Position numbers and translations under genes: made by a program. Positions 1 through 24,103 of a stretch of 24,103 bases of DNA are shown here, in pieces. Origin of the DNA: a virus (Duplodnaviria > Caudoviricetes); IMG/VR virus record IMGVR_UViG_3300023283_000204, positions 1-24,103 of that record. One strand, given 5' to 3'. How positions within the stretch are numbered: position 1 is the stretch's first letter; each line of letters starts with the position of its first letter. A model generated the notes under the pieces. The model did not search any database. It was not told the origin of the DNA and saw only the letters and a list, made by a program, of their open reading frames with translations.

Positions 1-3000
1 CTGCGTCGAACGTCTGATCGAAGCTGATGTTCGTGTCCATGTCCGCCCCCACATCGTCTTCCTGGTGGCGCAGGATCGGGAAGCCCGACCCGTGTAACAT
101 CGTGGTACGTGCAAACCCAACGGACGATAGATGCTGTTGTACCGTGTTGATCGGGGCGTTGTCGGACGGACGGAGCATGTTGTCGGTCACCGTCTCCGAT
201 GCGGTATCGATCAGGTCCCGCAGGCCGTCCGCCGAACGCACGGGCCCCTTCACGGATTCTGCGCCCGGCACTTCGCCGCCGAACCCGCTGCGGTGGCGGT
301 CGTCCTCCAGCGGGCCGCGACCGAGGCCCGGCAGGTCGCCGCGTTCGATGAACGGCGGGATGAACAGGGTCTGTTCGGCGCTCTCCGGGTTGTCCTGGAC
401 CCCCGTATCGCGAGCCTTGTAGACCAGCTCACGGTCGAATACCGCGCCCCGGGATACCGTCACCGTGTCGGGCGCGGCGCGCCACCCCTGCCAGTCGAGT
501 ATGAGCCGGCCCGTCTGCGCCTCGATTAGCTTGTAGTTGACCTCCAGCGACGACGTACCCAACGCACCCGCGATCGCGTCGAGCGTCACGTCCTGGAACA
601 CCGGGTTCGTCGTACGCAGGGGCTCGGCCGTCGCCGTCGGTACGACGAGCACGCCGGTGTCGCCGCCCGGCCGGACCTGCTGGTCGCTCTTGATGGTCTC
701 GACGGGCGCCAGCGTGGTGGCCGCGTTCTCGCCGCGGGCCTTCACCCACAGGATATTACCTTTGGGTACGGTGCCGGCGAACGTGACGCTGCCCTCGCGG
801 GCGTTGATCGTCGCGTCGGCGTTCGCTGCCGTCGGATCGACGGGCTCGCTGCCGTCGGTGGTCATGGTCAGGTGGATCTTGGCGGTGTCGCTGTCGCCAC
901 CCGCGTCGGCGCCCGGCGTACCGTCGTCACGGATCCATGCGCCGAGGTGCTGGACCTGGGCCACCTGTTCCTGGTCGAACGCCACGACGCTACCGGCGAC
1001 ACGCTTCGTCGTGCCCGCCTCGAACACTTCGTACTTGACAAACGATAGATCCTTCTCGACCAGCGTCACGCTGTCCTGTGTCGTCTGGCCCAACGTCAAC
1101 CCCGACGCGCTCGTGCCCGATACGAAGCTGCCGTCGCGGCCCTGCTTGGTCTCGAACTGTACGTCGTACGCGCCCGTCTCGGCGACGATCGTCAATGCCA
1201 GCGTGCCCGCCGTATCGGTCTCCGACACGTCCTCGACCACGATACCGCGCGTATCGCCAAACAGTAACCGCGCTTCCTTGACGGGACCCAGCACGCCGTC
1301 GCTGTTCTTGGACCGCGCCTTGACGCGTGCCTCCTCGCCACGTGCCAGCGCCACGCCCGTATCGACCGATCCCACGCGGCCCGCGATCACCGAATCGGAC
1401 GCCGTGTCGTCGGGGTCGGGCGGGTCCGCGTCCACGCCGACACGTGCGCGTATTTCGGTGGTGTCGCTGTCGCCGCCCGCCGCCACGAGCACCGTGTCGG
1501 ACGGTGTCAGTGTAGCGACCAACGTGTTGACCTCGGCCGTGCGATCGGCGTCGAACGCCACCGTACCGCCGCCCAGCAGCGTACCCTCATCGTTGTCGGT
1601 GATTTCGTACCTGATGAACGACAGGTCGCCCTCGACCAGTGTCACGTCCTGCTGCGTGAACTGACCGGCCGTGAGCGCGGTCGCGCTACCGGCGGCCACG
1701 AAGCTGCCGTCGCGGCCCTGTTTCGTCTCGAACTGGATGTCGTAGGACCCGACCTCCGCGCGTACGGTCAGCGTCAGTGTGCCCGTCGTACCGGTTTCCG
1801 CGATGTTCTCTTCGACGATACCACCGCGCGTGTCGCCGAACCGCAGCCTACCCTCGGTCACGGGTCCCAGTTCGCTGTTGGCGTTCACGCCGCGTATCTT
1901 GACGTGTGCTGTCTGGCCGCGCGACAGCTTGACGCCCGTGCTACCGGTACCAGCACGCGCGTTAATCACGAGGTCGTCGTCCACCGTACCGTCGGGGTCG
2001 ACGGGGTCGGCGTCGATGCCGACGCGTGCGCGTATCTCGGTGGTATCGGAATCGCCGCTGCCCGACACGATGACGTTGCGATCAACGTCCAGCGTGATTT
2101 CCGGCGGGCCGACCTCGGCCACGGCGTCGGGATCGAACGTGACGACCGACCGCGCCAGGCTGTTTGTGGTGCCAGCTTTAAACAGTTCGTACCGGATGAA
2201 TGCGTTCTGGCCCTCGATCAGGTCGACGTCCTGCGACGTCTGTTGACCCGACGACAGACCGGTCACGAGCGGCTGCGTGTTCCACGTCGTGCCGCGACCC
2301 TGCCGCGTGGCGAACTCCACGTCGAACGTGCCGCTGGCCGCCGCTGTCGTCAGCGTGAGCCGACCCTCGACGGTACCGTCGCCATCGAAGTCGTCCTCCT
2401 GGATGTCCTCCAGTACGAACGCGCCGCCGATGTCCGACGCCACGAAGTCGGTGTCGAGCACCACCGTAGCCGTTACGGGATCTGAGCGGAGTCCCGGGCC
2501 GAATGTGTTGACCGCGACGACCTTGACTTCCCACGTCTCACCTTCACGGCCACGGCCGATCATTTTCTGCTGGTCGCCGTTGTCCAGCCGCTCCGCGCCG
2601 TCCACCGACTCCAGCCGCTCGAAGTCTTCGTCGACTGGGCTTCCGCCGGCGTCTTCCGTCCGTCGGACAGAGATCTCTGTGCGGTCGAAGAACGGGTCCT
2701 GCGGAGGAGTCCAGGTGGCCTTGATACGGGGGATCTTGTCCCCCGCCGGAGTGATGAGCTGTGTCGATTGATCCGACGTCAGGGTCAAGTTGGTGACGGG
2801 AGCGATCGAGAACGGATCGGGCAGGCTGGAGCCCGGCACCGTAGGTTCGGCGTTCTGCGGGTCGAGGCTGTACGCGTTTGAATCGAATTCCGACAGCGTC
2901 AGTCGGGCCCGTGCCGACTCACCGCCCTCGGACGGATCCGGCGGAAGGATTCCCACCTCGTCGACCCACATTTCCTTGTCGGTCCAATCGGGCGTCGGGT

Positions 3001-4333
3001 GAGTGATCTTGACGACATCGCCGGCTTCGAGCTCGAGGGCCGCTTCGGTGGCGGTCAGCTGTGCGCCGACGTCCTCGCGCGCCTCTCGCAACAATACCAT
3101 CGCGATCTGCTGGGCGCGGACGAAGTTGGTGGTGGCCGGAAGGTCGATCTCCATCTGCTTGGGGACGCTGTTGTCGTCGTCGAGGAAAGGGTTGTTCCCC
3201 GGGTCCGGCCACTGGACCTCGTCGGTGACGAAACGGTTGTTTTCGTTCGGGAACTTGGCGATGACCGTGTTGGGTACCTCGCGGGATCCGGCCCGTTTCC
3301 ATGTCCAATCGCCGATGATGTTCGATTCGTCGAGCGTGAAGTCGACCGGCGTGACAGGCTTGCGGCTAAACACCCTCCACTGACCGCCCTGATAGACCAG
3401 CTCGGCGCGTGCGGACGACTTGAGGATCTCGAGGTTCTCCGCCCAGTTCGCCTCCGTGTCGAGCCACACGTCGCAGGTGAAGCGGTCCTGCACGCCGCCC
3501 GAGCCGTCCTGGACCTGTTCTTCGCAGAAGTTGGCCAGGTCGATGAAGCTCTGCTCGTCGATCTCGGAAGCCTCGGTCCCGCCGTCCCGCTCGGGATAGG
3601 GTGCGCCCACCCCATACCGCTTCGAGGTCAGGTAATCGAGGATGCAAAGCGCCGGGTTGTTCGACCACTTCCACGTCTGATCCCGGGGGTCGTAGACGCG
3701 GTTCCCCTTCACCTCGGCGGTGATGTTCGGGATCCCCGAACTGAAGACCTCCTTGTCGAACGTCAGGAAAGTGTGGACGTAGGCAATCCCGAGCCCACGA
3801 GAGGAGGTGGGCCACTCGCTCGAAAACCGCGCGTTGGCCACCCCGTCGACCGACTGGGAATCCGAGCCTGTTCCGATGCGATAGGTCAGCTTGCCGGAGA
3901 AGAAGTCGGTGACGCCCGCCGTCTCGTCGTCGGTATTGAGTGTCGGGCCGTCGATGGCAAGCCGCTCGTCGAAGAAGACCTTGGTGACGCCCTCGATGCC
4001 CGACCCGTCCTCGGAGGCGACCATCGGGGCGACGCCCCGAAACAGAAACTTCCGGTCTTCCGAGTTGGGGTCGACGCGGGTTTCAGAAAGCGCTCCCCCC
4101 ATCTTCGTCGTCCCGTAGACGATCTTGGTCGAGGCCACCCCGGAGGCGACGTTGCCCTGGATCCCCTCTTGGGAGGGACGCTGCTGAAAGACCGACCGCT
4201 GGAGAAGCCCCGCACCGAACGTCACGCCCGCAATCGCACCCGCAGCGGACAGCGACGCCCCGGCCACGACCGCGGCACCGCCTGTGGCGAGCCCCGAGAT
4301 GACGAGCGGGACGAGTGCGCCAGCAGGAGGCAT
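1..4333 (-). CDS. Tail tip / central tail fibre protein (lambda gpJ-like), partial, runs off left edge (>1440 aa)
   Basis: Not in ORF track because no stop lies in the window. ATG at 4333 overlaps the upstream stop (TGATG). Manual translation of most of the frame found no stop down to base 2: MPPAGALVPLVISGLATGG..., KIVYGTTKMGG, GLGIAYVH, PNITAEVKGNRVYDPRDQTWKWSNNPALCILDYL, RFTCDVWLDT, an FN3-like PVTNLTLT...WTPP...WEVKVVAVN segment, then tandem repeats. Position after Dit-hub-NlpC is canonical. Confidence 0.9.
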   Translation of the reverse strand, partial: MPPAGALVPLVISGLATGGAAVVAGASLSAAGAIAGVTFGAGLLQRSVFQQRPSQEGIQGNVASGVASTKIVYGTTKMGGALSETRVDPNSEDRKFLFRGVAPMVASEDGSGIEGVTKVFFDERLAIDGPTLNTDDETAGVTDFFSGKLTYRIGTGSDSQSVDGVANARFSSEWPTSSRGLGIAYVHTFLTFDKEVFSSGIPNITAEVKGNRVYDPRDQTWKWSNNPALCILDYLTSKRYGVGAPYPERDGGTEASEIDEQSFIDLANFCEEQVQDGSGGVQDRFTCDVWLDTEANWAENLEILKSSARAELVYQGGQWRVFSRKPVTPVDFTLDESNIIGDWTWKRAGSREVPNTVIAKFPNENNRFVTDEVQWPDPGNNPFLDDDNSVPKQMEIDLPATTNFVRAQQIAMVLLREAREDVGAQLTATEAALELEAGDVVKITHPTPDWTDKEMWVDEVGILPPDPSEGGESARARLTLSEFDSNAYSLDPQNAEPTVPGSSLPDPFSIAPVTNLTLTSDQSTQLITPAGDKIPRIKATWTPPQDPFFDRTEISVRRTEDAGGSPVDEDFERLESVDGAERLDNGDQQKMIGRGREGETWEVKVVAVNTFGPGLRSDPVTATVVLDTDFVASDIGGAFVLEDIQEDDFDGDGTVEGRLTLTTAAASGTFDVEFATRQGRGTTWNTQPLVTGLSSGQQTSQDVDLIEGQNAFIRYELFKAGTTNSLARSVVTFDPDAVAEVGPPEITLDVDRNVIVSGSGDSDTTEIRARVGIDADPVDPDGTVDDDLVINARAGTGSTGVKLSRGQTAHVKIRGVNANSELGPVTEGRLRFGDTRGGIVEENIAETGTTGTLTLTVRAEVGSYDIQFETKQGRDGSFVAAGSATALTAGQFTQQDVTLVEGDLSFIRYEITDNDEGTLLGGGTVAFDADRTAEVNTLVATLTPSDTVLVAAGGDSDTTEIRARVGVDADPPDPDDTASDSVIAGRVGSVDTGVALARGEEARVKARSKNSDGVLGPVKEARLLFGDTRGIVVEDVSETDTAGTLALTIVAETGAYDVQFETKQGRDGSFVSGTSASGLTLGQTTQDSVTLVEKDLSFVKYEVFEAGTTKRVAGSVVAFDQEQVAQVQHLGAWIRDDGTPGADAGGDSDTAKIHLTMTTDGSEPVDPTAANADATINAREGSVTFAGTVPKGNILWVKARGENAATTLAPVETIKSDQQVRPGGDTGVLVVPTATAEPLRTTNPVFQDVTLDAIAGALGTSSLEVNYKLIEAQTGRLILDWQGWRAAPDTVTVSRGAVFDRELVYKARDTGVQDNPESAEQTLFIPPFIERGDLPGLGRGPLEDDRHRSGFGGEVPGAESVKGPVRSADGLRDLIDTASETVTDNMLRPSDNAPINTVQQHLSSVGFARTTMLHGSGFPILRHQEDDVGADMDTNISFDQTFDA
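690..2430 (-). repeat. Three tandem ~192-194 aa repeats within the tail-tip protein (boundaries approximate)
   Basis: Recurring motifs EFATRQGRG / QFETKQGRDGSFV / QFETKQGRDGSFV and GDSDTTEIRARVG / GDSDTTEIRARVG / GDSDTAKIHLTM. Identical 23-mer acgaagctgccgtcgcggccctg at 1122-1144 and 1698-1720 (576 nt period); the third copy lies 582 nt further. Confidence 0.9.
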
Positions 4334-4755: not shown

Positions 4756-5480
4756 CAACGCCTCCCCGTCGGATCGTCGGGACCTCGACCGCCGCGGCCA
4801 CCACCGCCGCCCCCCCCTCTCGGACCGGCGCCGCCACCGCTCGTGGTGGCTTCATCCGGGGCGTTGGTGCCCCAGAAGATCCGACGGCCGGGCAGGTTCG
4901 GTACGTTTTGGAAGTAGGTGTCCCCCGTGGACAATCCGGCACGGGCCAGCATCGCGTTGTGAGATCGCTGGTTCGTCCGGACCGGCTTCGACTGCCTCAG
5001 GTCGGCCAGTCGGCTTCTGACCCGTGTCTCGATGTCGACCGTGGCGGGCCCCTCGTGGGAGCCGGGCGTCTCGGTGATCGAGTAGTCACCGAGCTGTCGG
5101 CCGCGGAAGATGAGCAGCGTGTCCGACACGCTCCCGTCGGTGACCGTCGCGCGCCAGATCCGCGCCTCCCGGCCGCGAAAGCTGTTGTTGAGCAGCGCGG
5201 AGATGATCGTCTGTTCGACGCCCGACAGCCTGATCCTCGTCCCCTGTGCCCGCTCGCGGGCGGTCTCCTGTGCCCCTCCCCACGACAGCCAGCCGCCGCT
5301 GCCCTGAAACGTGACTTCCCCCGTGCCGTCCGGATCCGCGTTGATGTCGTCTCCGGCCGTCGCGAGCCGGACTTCCGTCTCGGACGACCCGGTCCAGAAC
5401 TTGAGCTCCAGCAAATAGACGACCGTGCCGGTCTCGGCCTGGATCGCTGCCTGCTGTCCGCTCGTCAGTTCACGGGTCAC
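4755..5480 (-). CDS. Baseplate hub / minor tail protein (241 aa)
   Basis: Synteny between Dit and NlpC. VYLLELKF...VTFQGSGGWLSWGGAQET...RIRLSGV...FRGREARIWRA pattern resembles siphophage hub proteins; Gly/Arg-rich C-terminus; GTGA overlap. Confidence 0.7.
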   Translation of the reverse strand: MTRELTSGQQAAIQAETGTVVYLLELKFWTGSSETEVRLATAGDDINADPDGTGEVTFQGSGGWLSWGGAQETARERAQGTRIRLSGVEQTIISALLNNSFRGREARIWRATVTDGSVSDTLLIFRGRQLGDYSITETPGSHEGPATVDIETRVRSRLADLRQSKPVRTNQRSHNAMLARAGLSTGDTYFQNVPNLPGRRIFWGTNAPDEATTSGGGAGPRGGGGGGGRGGRGPDDPTGRR

Positions 5481-6637
5481 GGTGCCTCCAGAAAGGTGAC
5501 GCGGAGGCCCCCCATCAACTCACTCGGCAGTGCTTCTGGCATCGTATAGTCGACGATCTTGGCCCGGATGCGACTCTTCTGCAGCCGAAGCGCCGCCCCA
5601 TCGGCGGGTGTGTTGCCAGACAGAATTTCCGGTTCGATCGTGAGGGTGGCGTCGCCGTTGGAGTCGGAGTCCGCATCTTCGGTCGCCCGGAAAGCCGTCA
5701 CGATCTCGTCGGCCTCCGCATCCGCCTGTGTGGCGCCGCTGCCACCGATGCGAATCAGGTCTCCCGCTCGGACCACGTTCGTCGTCGACGCCGGCCACCC
5801 GGCGGTATCCAGCGTATCTCCCGTCTGGCTTCCGCCGCTGACGTGGGGGTTGGCGTAGGTGGCAGGGTCGGAGGAGGCGCGGAGGAGGCGGGCGTTGCGC
5901 CAGAACACGCTACCCGACACACCGTCTGTTTTCAGGCGGGCCAGCACCCGTACAAAGGCGGACGCAGCGCCGTCGGGGGCCTCTATACTCTCACGGGTGA
6001 GCCGGGAGAAGGAGCCATCCAGCGTGAAGTCCTGCGCGCTACCGCCGAACTGCGAACCGTCTGCGTCCCGAAACCGTATCGTCCACTGCGTCTGCACATC
6101 GCTTACTGGATCGAATGTCGTACGCGCCTCGATAGAAAGCGTGATAACATCTCCCGCGAAGACCCTCACAATCTCTTGGCGCATAAATATCTGATCGCCG
6201 TCCAACCCCGTTCCGTCTTGCTCAAACTCTTGGGAGTCGTCCGTCGTATCGAGCTTGGCCGTCCAGCCGGTCTCAGAACCCTCAAGGTTCCACGAATCTA
6301 CCACCCCGTCCCCGTTGGTGTCGTCCTTCATCTCGGCGTCGCGGATCAGGTTCTCATCGGCGGCGCCCCCCGATGGATTTCGCGCGCCAAGCAGCGTCGG
6401 GTGTTGCACCCAGAACAGCGTCCCGAGACGTGCGTGCCGTTCGATAAACGCGAGAAGCCGCTCTACCTCCGCCTCGCCTGCCTTCAGAATCGGCCAGCTC
6501 TCCTCCCACCGGATCCCTCGCGCCGTCGTCGAGCGTGTCTGTACCTGCCCCTGTGCAGATACCGACTGACGCGCCATACGCCCCATCGGACGACGCGCCC
6601 GGTTCGGCATCTTGTCTCGCGGGAAAGGAACGGCCAT
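5477..6637 (-). CDS. Distal tail protein (Dit) with inserted carbohydrate-binding-like domain
   Basis: Immediately follows TMP. Dit-like ends (GQVQTRS...W, VSGGSQTGDTLDTAGW...AGDLIRIG, ATLTIEPEI, VTFLEAP) flank an insert starting ENLIRDAEMKDDTNGDGVVDSW that resembles galactose-binding/CBM4-9-like modules. Confidence 0.75.
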   Translation of the reverse strand: MAVPFPRDKMPNRARRPMGRMARQSVSAQGQVQTRSTTARGIRWEESWPILKAGEAEVERLLAFIERHARLGTLFWVQHPTLLGARNPSGGAADENLIRDAEMKDDTNGDGVVDSWNLEGSETGWTAKLDTTDDSQEFEQDGTGLDGDQIFMRQEIVRVFAGDVITLSIEARTTFDPVSDVQTQWTIRFRDADGSQFGGSAQDFTLDGSFSRLTRESIEAPDGAASAFVRVLARLKTDGVSGSVFWRNARLLRASSDPATYANPHVSGGSQTGDTLDTAGWPASTTNVVRAGDLIRIGGSGATQADAEADEIVTAFRATEDADSDSNGDATLTIEPEILSGNTPADGAALRLQKSRIRAKIVDYTMPEALPSELMGGLRVTFLEAP

Positions 6638-16240: not shown

Positions 16241-18298
16241 TCACCTGGCCGGTAGAATCATGCAGTCGCACCCCTGATGTAGGGGCGGGTGTCCAATGTC
16301 GGTTCGCGTCTTCAACGTCGACGGCTCGTCTCCCTCTATATTGATCTCGTCACCTTCTCCCAGGAACGTGCCCTGGATGTCCACGACCTTGCCCTCCAAG
16401 CTCTGACACAGCGGGCAGTTTTCTGTGCCGACGTTTCGCCAGATCAGAGCCGTCACGCCACCCGCTGCGAACGCGAAACGTGCAGAAGCGTTGGACAGGC
16501 GATGGACCTCTTCGGTCGCCACTTTGGCGGGTCTCGGAACGATGTCGCTCTCTCCTCGGCCCTCCCACTCTTCCAGTCTCTGCTCGATCGCCTCGGGGGC
16601 TGTCCGATCTTCGTTGCGCGACTTGCGAGCCACGTCCTGGAGCTGTCGACGAGAAGAGGCCGACTCTCGCACCGCAAACTTGTCGGTGTATTCGTCGGCG
16701 AACGACTGTACTCGCTCTTCGTCGATCGACGTGTCGACCCGATCCGCAGATTCAGAAGCCACGGCCTGCGTAAGACTGCGGAATACCGGACGCATCACCG
16801 ACCGGACAAACGCCGGGTGGTCGTTGCGGTAGAACCGCTCCAGCTCGTTGAGCAGCCGCTCCAGGTTGTCGGCAGGCACCTGTTTCAGCAACTCGCTGAC
16901 GTTGCGGACTTCACCCCGTATCAGCTGCTCCGCCTTGTCTTGTAACATCGGCGAAAAAGCGCGAATCAACCGCTTACGTGCGGCCACGAGACTCGCCTCG
17001 CCCGGACTTCCGGGAATGGTCTGCCGCCGCTCCATTTCCACCGGCTCCGCTTCGGCGGCGAGCAGTCGGGCCCGCTGATCGATGCTCAACCCCTTCGCCT
17101 GCTGGAGCGGGATCATGTTGAGCGGAATGAACGGCATGTCACCGCCGGGAACCGGGTTGTCGTTTTCGAGCGCTCGGATCTCGTTGGGCGTGATCGAGCC
17201 CGTCTGCATCCGCGCCTGATAGAACTCGGCCCGCGCCTGGCTGTCACCCCGCAAAAGGCCCTCGACAACGTGTTCGGCGAAAAGGTTTTCTTCACCTTCG
17301 CCAAACAGCTGCATCGTGATGCGCGACTCGATCCGACGGAGCCAGGGTAGCATTGTGTACATGACAAATTCGAGCGACTGCATCTCGATGTTCGAGAACG
17401 TCGCATCGCTCATATCCCCGATCAGATGCGGCTGGATGTTCAGGATCTGGGCGGCCTTTCGGTCGTCCAGACGGCGAGCTTCGACGAGCTGGCTTCGCTC
17501 GGGGTCTGTAGTGATCTGCTTCCACTTGAGCCCCTCCTCGAGCAACGCCAATCGATGTTGCTGGTCCAGGCCGCTGTAAATCGTGTCGGCGTCCTCTCGA
17601 AGCCGCTCATACGCTTTGTCGGAAAGACTCTTGTCCGTCTCCAACACACCCGACGGGGCCGCTCCCTGGCCGAAAAACTTGGCGGCGAACCTCTCCGTTG
17701 CGAGGCCAAGACCGATCGTCTCCTTGTGAAGGTCGACTAGCGACTCGCCGATCAGGCCGCCCGTGGCAAAGCCGGGGATTCTCAACATCTGGTCGGAGGT
17801 AAAATCGACTTCCAACGCCCGACCGTTTCGGTTGAAGCGGCGCGGCAAGCGCACCTTGAACACCAGGTCGTCACCCACGTCCCGTTTGATGCGAACGCGA
17901 TCTGGATTGATCGGCCACAACTCTCGAACCCGACCTCTCCGGTCCGTCACGATCTCCGTATAGCTGACCCCGAACAAGATGATGTGCGCAATCAGCATCT
18001 CGCGGTATTCGAGTGCGGTCATCTCCGGATTGGCGGCCCGGTTGATGGCATTGAACACCGGATGCGATCGCTTCGGCTCTTTGCCGCCGTCATCTTGACG
18101 CTCAAACACGGGCAGCGGGAGCATGGCGGCGATCGACGAGATCCGGCGCACACCCGCCGAGAGCGCTGTCCATTCCAGGGCGTTGTTGGTCGAAACGGGC
18201 ACACTAGAAGAGGTCCGCCTCCGGCTGCCTGTAAAAGCGTTGACGACCGCATCGGACGGGTCTGTCAGCGACCTGCGCTCCATGACTCTCGTCAGCAT
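16241..18298 (-). CDS. HK97-family portal protein fused to a MuF/SPP1-gp7-like minor head domain (685 aa)
   Basis: Portal motifs (ANPEMTA, LWPINPDRV, FF-x-x-GA-x-PSGVL, LEEGLKW, TFSNIE, LLRGD, TPNEIRALEN) followed by ATEE...W...CPLC...HPPLHQGCDC, the C-terminal MuF/gp7 signature. Confidence 0.92.
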   Translation of the reverse strand: MLTRVMERRSLTDPSDAVVNAFTGSRRRTSSSVPVSTNNALEWTALSAGVRRISSIAAMLPLPVFERQDDGGKEPKRSHPVFNAINRAANPEMTALEYREMLIAHIILFGVSYTEIVTDRRGRVRELWPINPDRVRIKRDVGDDLVFKVRLPRRFNRNGRALEVDFTSDQMLRIPGFATGGLIGESLVDLHKETIGLGLATERFAAKFFGQGAAPSGVLETDKSLSDKAYERLREDADTIYSGLDQQHRLALLEEGLKWKQITTDPERSQLVEARRLDDRKAAQILNIQPHLIGDMSDATFSNIEMQSLEFVMYTMLPWLRRIESRITMQLFGEGEENLFAEHVVEGLLRGDSQARAEFYQARMQTGSITPNEIRALENDNPVPGGDMPFIPLNMIPLQQAKGLSIDQRARLLAAEAEPVEMERRQTIPGSPGEASLVAARKRLIRAFSPMLQDKAEQLIRGEVRNVSELLKQVPADNLERLLNELERFYRNDHPAFVRSVMRPVFRSLTQAVASESADRVDTSIDEERVQSFADEYTDKFAVRESASSRRQLQDVARKSRNEDRTAPEAIEQRLEEWEGRGESDIVPRPAKVATEEVHRLSNASARFAFAAGGVTALIWRNVGTENCPLCQSLEGKVVDIQGTFLGEGDEINIEGDEPSTLKTRTDIGHPPLHQGCDCMILPAR

Positions 18299-18516
18299 CA
18301 CTTATCCTCTAGCCGCGGCAGGCCGAAGGCCCCAATCAACCCGAGCGTCAGACCAACCGCTATATATCCCCCGGGGGTCCACCACTCAGACACCCCATAT
18401 GCGAACAGAAACAGGCCGCCGTAAACATGGAAGTCTCGAACGAGACCCGGAACGGCACCGCGCAGCCACGTCCAGCCTCGGTTCACCTGTCGCCTGATCG
18501 GCCCCAAGAAGCCCAT
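18298..18516 (-). CDS. Small membrane protein between TerL and portal (72 aa)
   Basis: Two hydrophobic stretches (VYGGLFLFAYGV; GGYIAVGLTLGLIGAFGL); abuts both neighbours. Confidence 0.72.
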   Translation of the reverse strand: MGFLGPIRRQVNRGWTWLRGAVPGLVRDFHVYGGLFLFAYGVSEWWTPGGYIAVGLTLGLIGAFGLPRLEDK

Positions 18517-22120: not shown

Positions 22121-22182
22121 ATACAGAGAAGCGGGGCGGAGGCCACACCTCTCGGTGCGACTTCCGCCCCGTCTGGCGGAGT
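22121..22182 (-). terminator. Terminator/antiterminator-like hairpin pair in the leader of the packaging operon
   Basis: CGGGGCGGA-a-GTCGCACC-GAGA-GGTGTGGC-c-TCCGCCCCG followed by CTTCTCTGTAT; upstream TCCGCC (22175-22180) can pair alternatively with GGCGGA. Confidence 0.55.
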
Positions 22183-22265: not shown

Positions 22266-22700
22266 TTACACGTCAGCCGTCGCCGGGTTTGGGGTTGCTC
22301 GCACCGCCGTCAAGGCCGCGCGAGAGATCACTTCGGGGAAGGTGCTTCCATACGCCTGAAAAACCTCTCCGTTGTCATTCTTCCAGCCCATCCTGCAGTG
22401 CGGGCCGTCGTTGAGAAGTTGGAGCCGGAAGAGGATCGGAACGCCGTATCGATGCCCTCCCTTTTCGAGGATCTTCCACGCGGCGGCGATGTTCGTGTGG
22501 AAATAGGGCACTGCGTTCGGGTCGCCGCCCCTGTCGTCGTCAGTCAGGCGGAATTGGTATGCGAACGGGCTCACGCCGACAATCCGGTACCTGTGTCGGT
22601 GGTCCTCGTCCCGACGCACGTCGAGGCCGAACACTTCCCTCGCGATCGCCGCGTCCAGCTCTCGACCCTTGGGGCGTTCGTCTTTCGGTCGTTCACTCAT
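22266..22700 (-). CDS. Phage ABA-sandwich domain protein (144 aa)
   Basis: GRELDAAIAREVFG...PYFHTNIAAAWKILEK...STFPEVISRAALTAV matches the phage ABA sandwich (BC1872-like) pattern; start at the ATGAGTGA overlap. Confidence 0.75.
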   Translation of the reverse strand: MSERPKDERPKGRELDAAIAREVFGLDVRRDEDHRHRYRIVGVSPFAYQFRLTDDDRGGDPNAVPYFHTNIAAAWKILEKGGHRYGVPILFRLQLLNDGPHCRMGWKNDNGEVFQAYGSTFPEVISRAALTAVRATPNPATADV

Positions 22701-22944
22701 CGGTGAGTTTCTCTGTGTCCACAACGGAGAAAATCAACCATGAGCACAGGCCAAACCATACCAGCAGGAATGTCCAGCCCATACCCAGTGTCAGAGCGTA
22801 AACCGGCCACATGATTGGACCGAGAAACACCACCAAAAACAGGACCGCTGCCAGCTTTCCCAGAACCCCCGTAACCCTTGCACCCATATCTATCATCAGT
22901 TCAACAAAATGGCGCAGCTCCCGGATGATCATCCGTTCACTCAT
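22693..22944 (-). CDS. Small membrane protein (83 aa, two hydrophobic segments)
   Basis: MSERMIIRELRHF...LAAVLFLVVFLGPIMWPVYAL...WTFLLVWFGLCSWLIFSVV; 8-nt overlaps at both ends. Confidence 0.7.
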   Translation of the reverse strand: MSERMIIRELRHFVELMIDMGARVTGVLGKLAAVLFLVVFLGPIMWPVYALTLGMGWTFLLVWFGLCSWLIFSVVDTEKLTDE

Positions 22945-23179
22945 CAGCGTCAGCCCCAGGCTCTTCTCCGCCGACCCGCCCGTCAAGGAAATCCGCCGCC
23001 CGCGCGAACGCTTCATCATCTATGGGCACCTTCCCATCGAATCCTAGACGCTCGGGCTCATGACGAAGAATATCTAGAATGATCAGGGCGGGGTTGTTGC
23101 TCACTTTATACTCTCCATCACGGGGGTCGTAGACAAGCTTGCCACGTATGTCCGCTTTGATCTTCGGTCGTTCACTCAT
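22937..23179 (-). CDS. 80-aa stand-alone homologue of the tail-tip (gpJ) core motif
   Basis: GGGAG-rich RBS and ATG 23179; PKIKADIRGKLVYDPRDGEYKVSNNPALIILDIL shares 21/34 identities with the tail-tip segment starting at 3730. Confidence 0.8.
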   Translation of the reverse strand: MSERPKIKADIRGKLVYDPRDGEYKVSNNPALIILDILRHEPERLGFDGKVPIDDEAFARAADFLDGRVGGEEPGADADE

Positions 23180-23285
23180 CGTTCGCTCCCTCCCTCTCCC
23201 GCACCGTCCGCTCCTCGATCCGCTCGTAGCTGGTCCACCGGGCTTGACACTGCTCGCAGTCTCGCCAGCTAGGAAACCCGGACAA
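23172..23285 (-). CDS. 37-aa ORF resembling the second half of an NrdR-type zinc ribbon (not in ORF track)
   Basis: GGGAGG-6 nt-TTG; MSGFPSWRDCEQCQARWTSYERIEERTVREREGANDE*; stop overlaps the next ATG by the same ATGAGTGA junction. Confidence 0.5.
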   Translation of the reverse strand: MSGFPSWRDCEQCQARWTSYERIEERTVREREGANDE

Positions 23286-23676
23286 GCTTTCCCTCCCACC
23301 GGGTACGCTGGTGATGGTCGCACCTTTCGCCGATTTCTTCCACCTCTAGTTTACAGGGCCTTCTCTGCGTCTTCGCCCACCCGCCCGAATCACCGCACGT
23401 TGGATGGTCGGTTCTCCGTTTCCATTTCCGGTAATAGACCAACTTCTTGAGCTGGCGGCGCTCCGCAGAGCGCTGGCGCAGTAGGTTGTGGCGGTCCTGG
23501 TGGCACGGCCGGCAGAGCCACTCAACGTCCAGGGGGCGGTCATAGTCTTTGTGGTGTCCCTCTATGTCGTGCTCCGATGAGCCACACCCTGAGCAGCTAT
23601 CTGGCCTCGTCATATCCCCTCTTTCAATCGCCCTTGCGACCTTGCGGTGTGCCGCACGTCGTGTCGTGTTCGCCAC
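23269..23676 (-). CDS. HNH-like Zn-binding protein with C-terminal Cys/His module
   Basis: RAIERG...RPDSCSGCG...IEGHHKDYDRPLDVEWLCRPCH (common phage HNH-like family), then TCGDSGGWAKTQRRPC...GERCDHH. Confidence 0.8.
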   Translation of the reverse strand: MANTTRRAAHRKVARAIERGDMTRPDSCSGCGSSEHDIEGHHKDYDRPLDVEWLCRPCHQDRHNLLRQRSAERRQLKKLVYYRKWKRRTDHPTCGDSGGWAKTQRRPCKLEVEEIGERCDHHQRTRWEGKLVRVS

Positions 23677-23677
23677 C

Positions 23678-23899
23678 CTAAACCCGTACCAGTTGAGTGA
23701 TAGTCACCTCCAGCGCGTCGGCCAGCCGCATCACCGTCGAAAGCCGTGCGTCATGCGTCCCAGACTCGAGATCGGAGATGTACTGCTGACTTCGGTCCGC
23801 CCGACGGGCTAGCTCCTGTTGGGTAATGCCGAGCTCCTCGCGGCGCTGCTTGATGCCCTCGCCCAACCGAGACGGTGCCCCTCTATACCTGCTATTCAT
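23678..23899 (-). CDS. XRE/Cro-family helix-turn-helix regulator (73 aa)
   Basis: LGEGIKQRREELGITQQELARRADRSQQYISDLESG...LSTVMRLADALEV. Confidence 0.92.
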   Translation of the reverse strand: MNSRYRGAPSRLGEGIKQRREELGITQQELARRADRSQQYISDLESGTHDARLSTVMRLADALEVTITQLVRV

Positions 23900-23937
23900 T
23901 GTACCGACAATCTATTGTATCGCCAACGCCAGCACAA
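23896..23937 (-). promoter_or_regulatory. Putative promoter with overlapping inverted repeats (operator) upstream of the XRE gene
   Basis: TTGTGC-17 nt-TAGATT (23932-23937, 23909-23914); ACAAT-ag-ATTGT-cggt-ACAAT half-sites overlap -10 and ATG; no SD, ATG 9 nt after -10 (near-leaderless). Confidence 0.6.
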
Positions 23938-24103
23938 GGTCTGGCCCCTACCCTGCCCCGTCCATCGCCACCAGCATCGATGCCGCGGAAATGCCCCCGT
24001 GAAGGGGTGTTTCGGGCGAAATCGGGGCCGAATCGAGGCAAGATCCGCATGGCTTATGTGGCGATCGAGTTACGGCATGGCACAGAGGGTCTGATTGGTC
24101 GCC

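Follow-up and report, generated by a model that had tools for sequence, protein, structure and literature searches.

What does a siphophage gain from encoding, far from its tail genes, a short free-standing copy of one piece of its tail-tip protein? The question is raised by an 80-aa gene, here called mini-J, in the 24-kb (24,103 nt) siphophage genome fragment referred to below as the window.

A short tail-tip gene outside the tail operon

ORF calls and PHROG/Pfam profiles place all structural genes of the window on the minus strand, where the set comprises HNH, terminase, portal, protease, capsid, tape measure, distal tail, hub, DUF6950 and gpJ-like tip genes. The full gpJ-like gene, hereafter J (2..4333, minus strand; >1444 aa; phrog_5616 E 4e-60, phrog_31 E 1e-51, PF13550), follows the tape measure, distal tail, hub and DUF6950 genes and runs off the window. 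Mini-J (22937..23179, minus strand; P0001; ATG start; phrog_31 E 3e-9) lies 18.6 kb from J and outside the tail operon and, unlike gpJ, is not placed after tape measure or hub genes. A preliminary description of this locus had reported the 80-aa ORF and its homology to J. Both are present; the strand, which it had left unstated, is minus, and the plus-strand frame at 22937-23179 is interrupted by stops.

The mini-J protein consists of an MSERPK leader, a J-like strand, a YDPR hairpin, an NNPA helix and a second helix. The gene has its own ribosome binding site and is translationally coupled on both sides, as first proposed: a Shine-Dalgarno-like sequence, GGGAGGGAG, stands upstream at 23186..23194 (minus strand), with GGGAGG preceding the ATG, and an 8-nt overlap, ATGAGTGA, is found at each junction. 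On one side is gene B (22693..22944, minus strand), which encodes an 83-aa hydrophobic protein matching no known family, followed by gene C (22266..22700, minus strand), which starts with the same MSERPK leader and carries a Phage_ABA_S domain (PF18066, 28.1 bits against a cut-off of 27). On the other side, the stop of a 37-aa ORF that may not be a gene (23172..23285, minus strand; no family match above the cut-off) overlaps the mini-J start. By profile match, an HTH regulator (23678-23899) and a phrog_2340 endonuclease (23269-23676), both on the minus strand, head this block of small genes. The late promoter postulated earlier does not rise above chance, with one sigma-70-like site of 9/12 matches at 22229-22200 and two sites against a chance expectation of 0.8 +/- 0.9.

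Several further features of the window were recorded. An inverted repeat (22132-22171; 18-nt arms, 4-nt loop), a possible terminator or operator, separates the small-gene block from the genes preceding HNH, and a sulfotransferase gene (PF13469, 21231-21899) is directly upstream of the packaging HNH gene. The 686-aa portal (16241-18301) has a C-terminal part with weak matches to head-morphogenesis families (phrog_2468, phrog_24918), and the 386-aa distal tail protein (5477-6637) carries an insertion of ~150 aa ahead of its phrog_1302 match that is possibly a carbohydrate-binding domain.

Relationship of mini-J to the J of the same phage

BLASTP aligns mini-J with residues 202-274 of the window J (3512..3730, minus strand; 3730-3512 in reading direction) at 31/73 identities (E 2e-13). 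The ungapped core reaches the 21/34 identities originally claimed; when the core was shuffled 500 times and compared with the remaining window sequence in all six frames, no shuffle exceeded 12 (mean 9.2). All eight codon pairs quoted in the preliminary description are correct, and the conclusion drawn from them, that this is not a recent DNA duplication, is upheld because different codons are used at 11 of the 21 identical residues and pS is 0.65 against a pN of 0.30. Third positions of the core agree at 13/34 and GC3 is 0.56 in mini-J versus 0.84 in J, so the piece is either old or came from another phage. The replacement of both cysteines, also noted earlier, is true of the window copy (I33, L65) but is not a trait of the family described below, in which the second cysteine is kept by 62% of members. 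The gpJ-type hub-core homology is thus present in mini-J (BLASTP, PHROG and structure matches), while the full hub scaffold (PF13550), FNIII and fibre parts are absent from this closed 80-aa ORF, which has no Pfam match.

A family of stand-alone modules

Single-sequence searches yield almost only full-length J, and one returned the query alone. Seven loci from such a search were rejected as candidates, six being full-length J and one a chance frame. A single sequence matched 78 phage records; of the 60 listed, 58 coincide with genes annotated as tail or hypothetical, a placement that rests on annotation, and two are in unannotated records. Profiles were more productive. The first retrieved 41 short proteins: the query, 30 that were discarded as frameshifted or contig-end pieces of J, judged from reading the sequences, and 10 of another kind, starting shortly ahead of YDPR and stopping shortly past the second helix. 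A second profile returned 42 proteins (40 new identifiers), including one J chimera, which was left out, and one 194-aa fusion. A DNA pattern found 38 loci, comprising 22 minis (short closed ORFs), 8 full J genes and 8 chance matches; this pattern was designed to exclude most full J genes, so 22/38 is not a frequency. The ESM Atlas has clusters of similar proteins, 68, 81 and 87 aa long and with 70-90 members each, that serve as a lead only.

After duplicate removal, 59 distinct mini cores were available for comparison with 70 J segments. Most database minis are known as protein sequence only, without DNA context, and 19 distinct genes besides that of the window are closed ORFs inside contigs. 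No copy with annotated surroundings is next to tail genes. The stand-alone homologues outside tail operons that the preliminary description had suggested looking for therefore exist, and mini-J belongs to a real, apparently undescribed family of stand-alone tail-tip modules, mostly 55-125 aa long. No Pfam or PADLOC model covers the family, and only J-type PHROGs matched. None of 24 proteins (minis and neighbours) matches PADLOC, including, in its 2023 release, five phage-type or chromosomal minis and the copy of genome G157; this library is older than the papers on the Tai and Tab systems discussed below. A search of titles and abstract openings, among mostly open-access papers, found no description of a stand-alone hub fragment and no paper on the motif, and none of the matches listed was an RNA dataset holding mini-J.

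Some members depart from the simple form. P0118, P0124, P0127 and P0134 have a long lysine-rich tail or lie inside the 194-aa fusion protein. One locus (L039) holds two diverged minis 1.7 kb apart. Another copy (L044) is a truncated form of L042, which shows that members of the family can also decay. A fixed partner gene was sought and rejected, as no downstream gene is conserved across the 15 minis examined.

Purifying selection and the question of remnants

Are the minis remnants of decayed gpJ genes? The flanks were scanned with 14 J proteins and their profile over 19 loci, reading through stops. At all 19 loci the tblastn matches are confined to the mini segment (plus the window's own J), and no decayed gpJ surrounds the mini; at one locus (L021 = L027) the HMM alignment stretched over 1.1 kb without tblastn support. 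The second check called for at the outset, the ratio of non-synonymous to synonymous change, gave values well below 1. Across five non-overlapping pairs of minis, with the window copy itself outside the measurement, pN/pS is 0.19 in the motif (p 6e-10), 0.74 in the rest (p 0.05) and 0.53 overall, and related minis compared in pairs have dN/dS values of 0.16-0.64 in every case that allowed the calculation. At the sequence level, then, the YDPR..NNPA motif is under purifying selection in the mini family. The clean flanks and the low ratios together rule out a family of gpJ pseudogenes, and the stand-alone family is apparently new to the literature and neither a gpJ nor a pseudogene family.

Predicted structure and retained residues

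The mini model (AlphaFold2, 26 minis; pLDDT 81.6) contains a hairpin (14-18, 23-27) and two main helices (30-40, 55-65), and a model of J predicts the same elements at 204-270. The three best VIA-align matches are the T1 and lambda J proteins (lambda 241-318), with low Z scores of 3.6-4.1. Foldseek returned nothing from the PDB at E<=0.001, the BFVD matches of the mini are J proteins at E>=0.004, and a PDB sequence search gave no real match. Judged from the domain order given in two structural reports, the mini module would correspond either to the last part of the HDII insertion or to HDII, a region that these reports describe as contacting gpI and rotating on tube opening (PMC10721106, PMC11101478).

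YDPR, NNPA and A-[ND]-x-x-[DE] persist in the minis, from which the aromatic residue ahead of SNNP, D-Y-L and YG have gone; the aromatic-Gly pair is retained in 2/59 minis versus 53/70 J segments. Conservation of the motif residues in minis equals or exceeds that in J (mini/J: D 98/95, P 100/90, R 98/94, N 100/100 and P 96/84 percent). In most minis the second helix is remodelled, with an F-W/Y pair, and the preceding strand is dropped; the window mini-J is closer to J in its features than most, and a weak tree puts it among the J segments. That tree (63 columns, quick search only, 82/126 inner branches open) is unable to tell one origin from several. Three minis have a long hairpin resembling that of a J subtype, which suggests that the family may have arisen more than once.

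A repeat-flanked, removable cassette

Overlooked in the preliminary description is a 19-nt direct repeat that brackets mini-J and gene B. Copy 1 (23163..23181) covers the stop/start junction and first codons of mini-J, copy 2 (22928..22946), 74% identical, the mini-J/gene B junction, and copy 3 (22684..22702), an exact copy, the gene B/gene C junction. Three successive small genes (22684-23181) share the MSER leader inside this repeat, which is the excision point. In an unrelated viral contig (L008, 2507-3017), two successive genes start with MSER, one of them with the same 18-mer.

Contigs of one sequencing run (X1), from which the window may derive, contain three states of the cassette. The first is intact. 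In the second, 154 nt are absent (22925..23078), and the first 34 mini-J codons, with a damaged motif and 22 other differences in the allele, are fused to gene B. The third lacks 479 nt, joining exact repeat copies 1 and 3 and thereby removing both mini-J and gene B. Contig depths are 34.7 (intact), 13.2 and 13 (flank 50.8), which are not shares of cells. A second run of the same study (X2) carries the intact form with zero differences. The coexistence of intact, decayed-fused and deleted alleles in run X1 makes mini-J an accessory gene. Gene B is part of the removable cassette here and not a conserved partner across the mini family. A possible 702-nt skip in X1 (23269-23972), which would remove the endonuclease and HTH genes, has a short side of 28 letters and is uncertain.

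The fused allele corresponds to database protein P0050, whose locus was not found in viral contigs. Among the differences listed, its mini part departs from the window at seven non-synonymous versus two synonymous codons, D18 and P19 among those affected, and its gene B has also decayed (five versus one). At all five differences with a clear commonest family residue (V16, D18, P19, K25, L32), that residue is present in the window allele and gone from the fused one. The intact window allele thus looks to be under constraint, although n is small.

Genomic contexts and comparison with each phage's own J

In phages the copies are mostly found within groups of small accessory genes, close to dUTPase, DUF4326, DUF2786 or HNH genes, and none of 130 proteins from 10 mini loci matches a tail family. 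In a Smithella prophage, the mini is located between terminase and portal with the full J 21 kb away. The replicon p7 of Rhizobium bangladeshense (NZ_CP071625.1; L077-L079, L074) has an annotated capsid, tape measure and L-NlpC-I-J tip, so it is a phage-like element (phage-plasmid), and its mini (WP_207610017.1) is 65 kb from its J. The annotation of p7 also shows the complete gene complement of a siphophage, together with DNA polymerase, ribonucleotide reductase and two ParB genes. A complete 108-kb phage (G004), at first a candidate for lacking J, was found by local HMM search to have two tandem J-like genes of 745 and 2068 aa (L064, 7372-15812); in both products the hub region is interrupted at one corresponding point by a common insertion.

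The preliminary description called mini-J a mimic of the phage's own tail tip. For the family this fails on two grounds: how the own J ranks against the mini, and four copies on bacterial chromosomes. In the five phages with both proteins readable, the own J ranks 10, 39, 64, 68 and 70 among 70 J segments, and in three of the five the mini is closer to other phages' J than to its own. These three (G003, G004 and p7; ranks 64, 70 and 68) lack the YDPR hairpin in their J; the second and third best matches of the p7 mini are the J of Rhizobium phage RHph_X2_24 and of a Labrenzia phage, which have the same long hairpin. The motif is kept by the own J in the window phage and the Smithella prophage, the former ranking 10/70 in a J set chosen mostly for likeness to the window mini. 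All own Js keep an NP-helix-AxYC core.

Solitary chromosomal minis without phage neighbours occur in four genomes (G001, G157, G595, G598) at three sites in one bacterial family. By Pfam, the G001 copy lies between peptidase and acyl-CoA ligase genes and the G157 copy after a xanthine-dehydrogenase cluster, each antisense to its neighbours. G598 is syntenic with G157, and the G595 copy is at another site, where the neighbours look non-phage from their translations. Among G157, G595 and G598, pN/pS is 0.17-0.29. Minis of any kind are present in 5/116 genomes of this family (four chromosomal, one prophage-borne), 2/201 in the order sample and 1/401 in the phylum sample, these genomes being incomplete. 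The genus with the chromosomal copies also has a prophage with a YDPR-type J.

Candidate functions

We tentatively favour, at somewhat less than an even chance, the reading that mini-J is a selected, free-standing hairpin-two-helix module of gpJ that acts as a competitive mimic and blocks tail-tip assembly by rival phages. The protein, if made, would replace the real J module at its interface with a tip partner, which might be a neighbouring J, the hub protein or the end of the tape measure. Tail initiation would then stall and tailless particles would result, as described for Tai and Tab. Self-harm could be avoided through a diverged own J, as in three of the five phages, or through timing or an antidote, which the window phage would need.

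What sets this reading ahead is that selected host copies and a mismatch with the own J are predicted by it and not by protection from a host sensor. Four solitary copies at three chromosomal sites have been retained under selection among non-phage neighbours; a host would presumably benefit from blocking phage assembly and not from shielding phages against its own sensors, and a prophage with a suitable J is at hand in the same genus. The absent hairpins in G003, G004 and p7, the match of the p7 mini to foreign J proteins, and the conservation of the motif point the same way, and single-gene prophage blockers of tail assembly have been published, according to the accessible parts of two reports (PMC11364771, PMC10884400). 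Several observations stand against it. The own J keeps the motif in two of the five phages, and in these the minis are co-oriented with the late genes, the Smithella copy lying between terminase and portal, so that self-poisoning is predicted; yet no antidote gene was identified, and no downstream gene is conserved across 15 minis. The loss of J-specific residues implies that those retained may merely hold the fold together, and the NP-helix-AxYC core common to all own Js means that the hairpin mismatch also leaves room for a decoy. The chromosomal copies, moreover, are rare, unmatched in PADLOC, and form a branch with extensions of its own that may act unlike the window copy.

A less probable, though possible, alternative is that mini-J sequesters a factor of the host or of a prophage able to recognise the J core, such as a STAND-type sensor or a Tai-like blocker, and so protects the phage's own tip. 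The accessory small-gene blocks fit, as do the expected late co-expression and a position before the packaging genes; the Smithella copy, within a head-packaging operon, would be co-produced with J. In the available text on Tai, the counter-defence gene atiEcA precedes the packaging module as mini-J does in the window (PMC11364771). Avs sensors bind conserved cores of structural proteins, and a survey of them suggests the hub as another possible target, but neither hub nor tip is among the 13 targets listed in its accessible part, which names no cognate sensor (PMC13581612). Selected chromosomal copies would undermine their host's own immunity, and a mini often nearer to a foreign J than to its own is poorly suited to this role. 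Gain and loss within one population would fit a host-dependent benefit; the damage or loss of the cassette in two of the three X1 alleles could reflect a cost of self-poisoning and fits such a benefit equally.

It is rather improbable that the module has become a scaffold, self-folding and now binding a host target unrelated to tails, with a purely structural motif. The compact predicted fold, the nearly neutral part after the motif, the remodelled second helix with loss of the preceding strand, and the basic tails or fusions of some minis (P0118, P0134) would suit such a change of role. Few new family-wide conserved residues have appeared beyond those of J, however, and the hairpin length of minis mirrors J subtypes, which fits continued matching or repeated capture.

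Very unlikely is the suggestion that the window copy, irrespective of how other family members behave, is a fragment that was captured recently, is neutral and is being lost. Two of three X1 alleles are damaged or lack the gene, the window copy is more J-like than most, its GC3 differs from that of J, and no second intact sequence offers a direct estimate of selection; but the window allele keeps the family residue at 5/5 positions, its start, ribosome binding site and frame are intact, and its flanks hold no J remnant. Last, a regulator of timing or chaperone for the phage's own tail assembly is scarcely credible: minis share the strand of the late genes in the window phage and the Smithella prophage, but deleted alleles exist, the position of the mini varies, the own J is often mismatched, and chromosomal copies have no tail genes nearby. 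Among the three functions originally proposed, assembly timing thus fits worst, while a tail-assembly poison and a sensor decoy both keep standing.

Mini-J would be a competitive mimic under either of these two, differing in the target bound, and either way the core of the tail-tip hub is a contested surface. A broader proposition, to which we give some credence but under half, is that phages and bacteria have repeatedly excised the most conserved module of the siphophage hub as a one-gene dominant-negative antiviral, domesticated in chromosomes. Mammalian restriction factors derived from retroviruses offer a comparison for such virion-derived defence. A blocker of assembly would be a 60-80-aa inhibitor and simple probe of tail initiation; a decoy would lure an immune receptor that senses the hub, a kind that a 2026 survey mentions only as possible. 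Both readings are directly testable, since one carrier is in culture (Rhizobium bangladeshense PLR8-1a, with p7 and WP_207610017.1), the matching J segment occurs in many E. coli phages, among them JenK1, HdK1, Halfdan and Seurat, and a damaged allele exists in nature.

Comparison with known systems

With gpJ, the central tail fibre hub (phrog_5616, phrog_31; lambda J 8IYK, T1 tail tip 9L9P, T5 pb3), mini-J shares one internal segment in sequence and predicted secondary structure. At 80 aa against 700-1500 aa, it lacks the other hub domains, the FNIII repeats and the receptor-binding part, and it lies outside the tail operon.

Small phage proteins that counter a sensor of tail proteins, as DSAD1 counters DSR2, are the model for the decoy alternative. 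DSR2, a known sensor, is triggered by the tail tube protein; for mini-J, the trigger would be the J core and the sensor is hypothetical. DSAD1 is not known to be a homologous piece of that tube protein. Avs STAND receptors are the broader parallel, in that conserved structural cores trigger immunity; in the accessible text, hub and tip are outside the 13 targets and appear only as a possibility (PMC13581612).

The closest parallel in proposed action is with Tai and Tab, described in the available parts of the reports as single accessory genes of prophages or satellites that give tailless phage (PMC11364771, PMC10884400), protein J being inferred as a target of Tai (PMC11364771). Mini-J is likewise a single accessory gene, and its mode of action may be the same. 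Judged by description only, in those same parts, Tai and Tab are not presented as pieces of tail proteins (PMC11364771, PMC10884400), and they have anti-Tai and anti-Tab partners, for which no conserved candidate appears downstream of 15 minis. By analogy with these systems, the mini family likely resembles tail-assembly blockers or anti-sensor decoys in its action.
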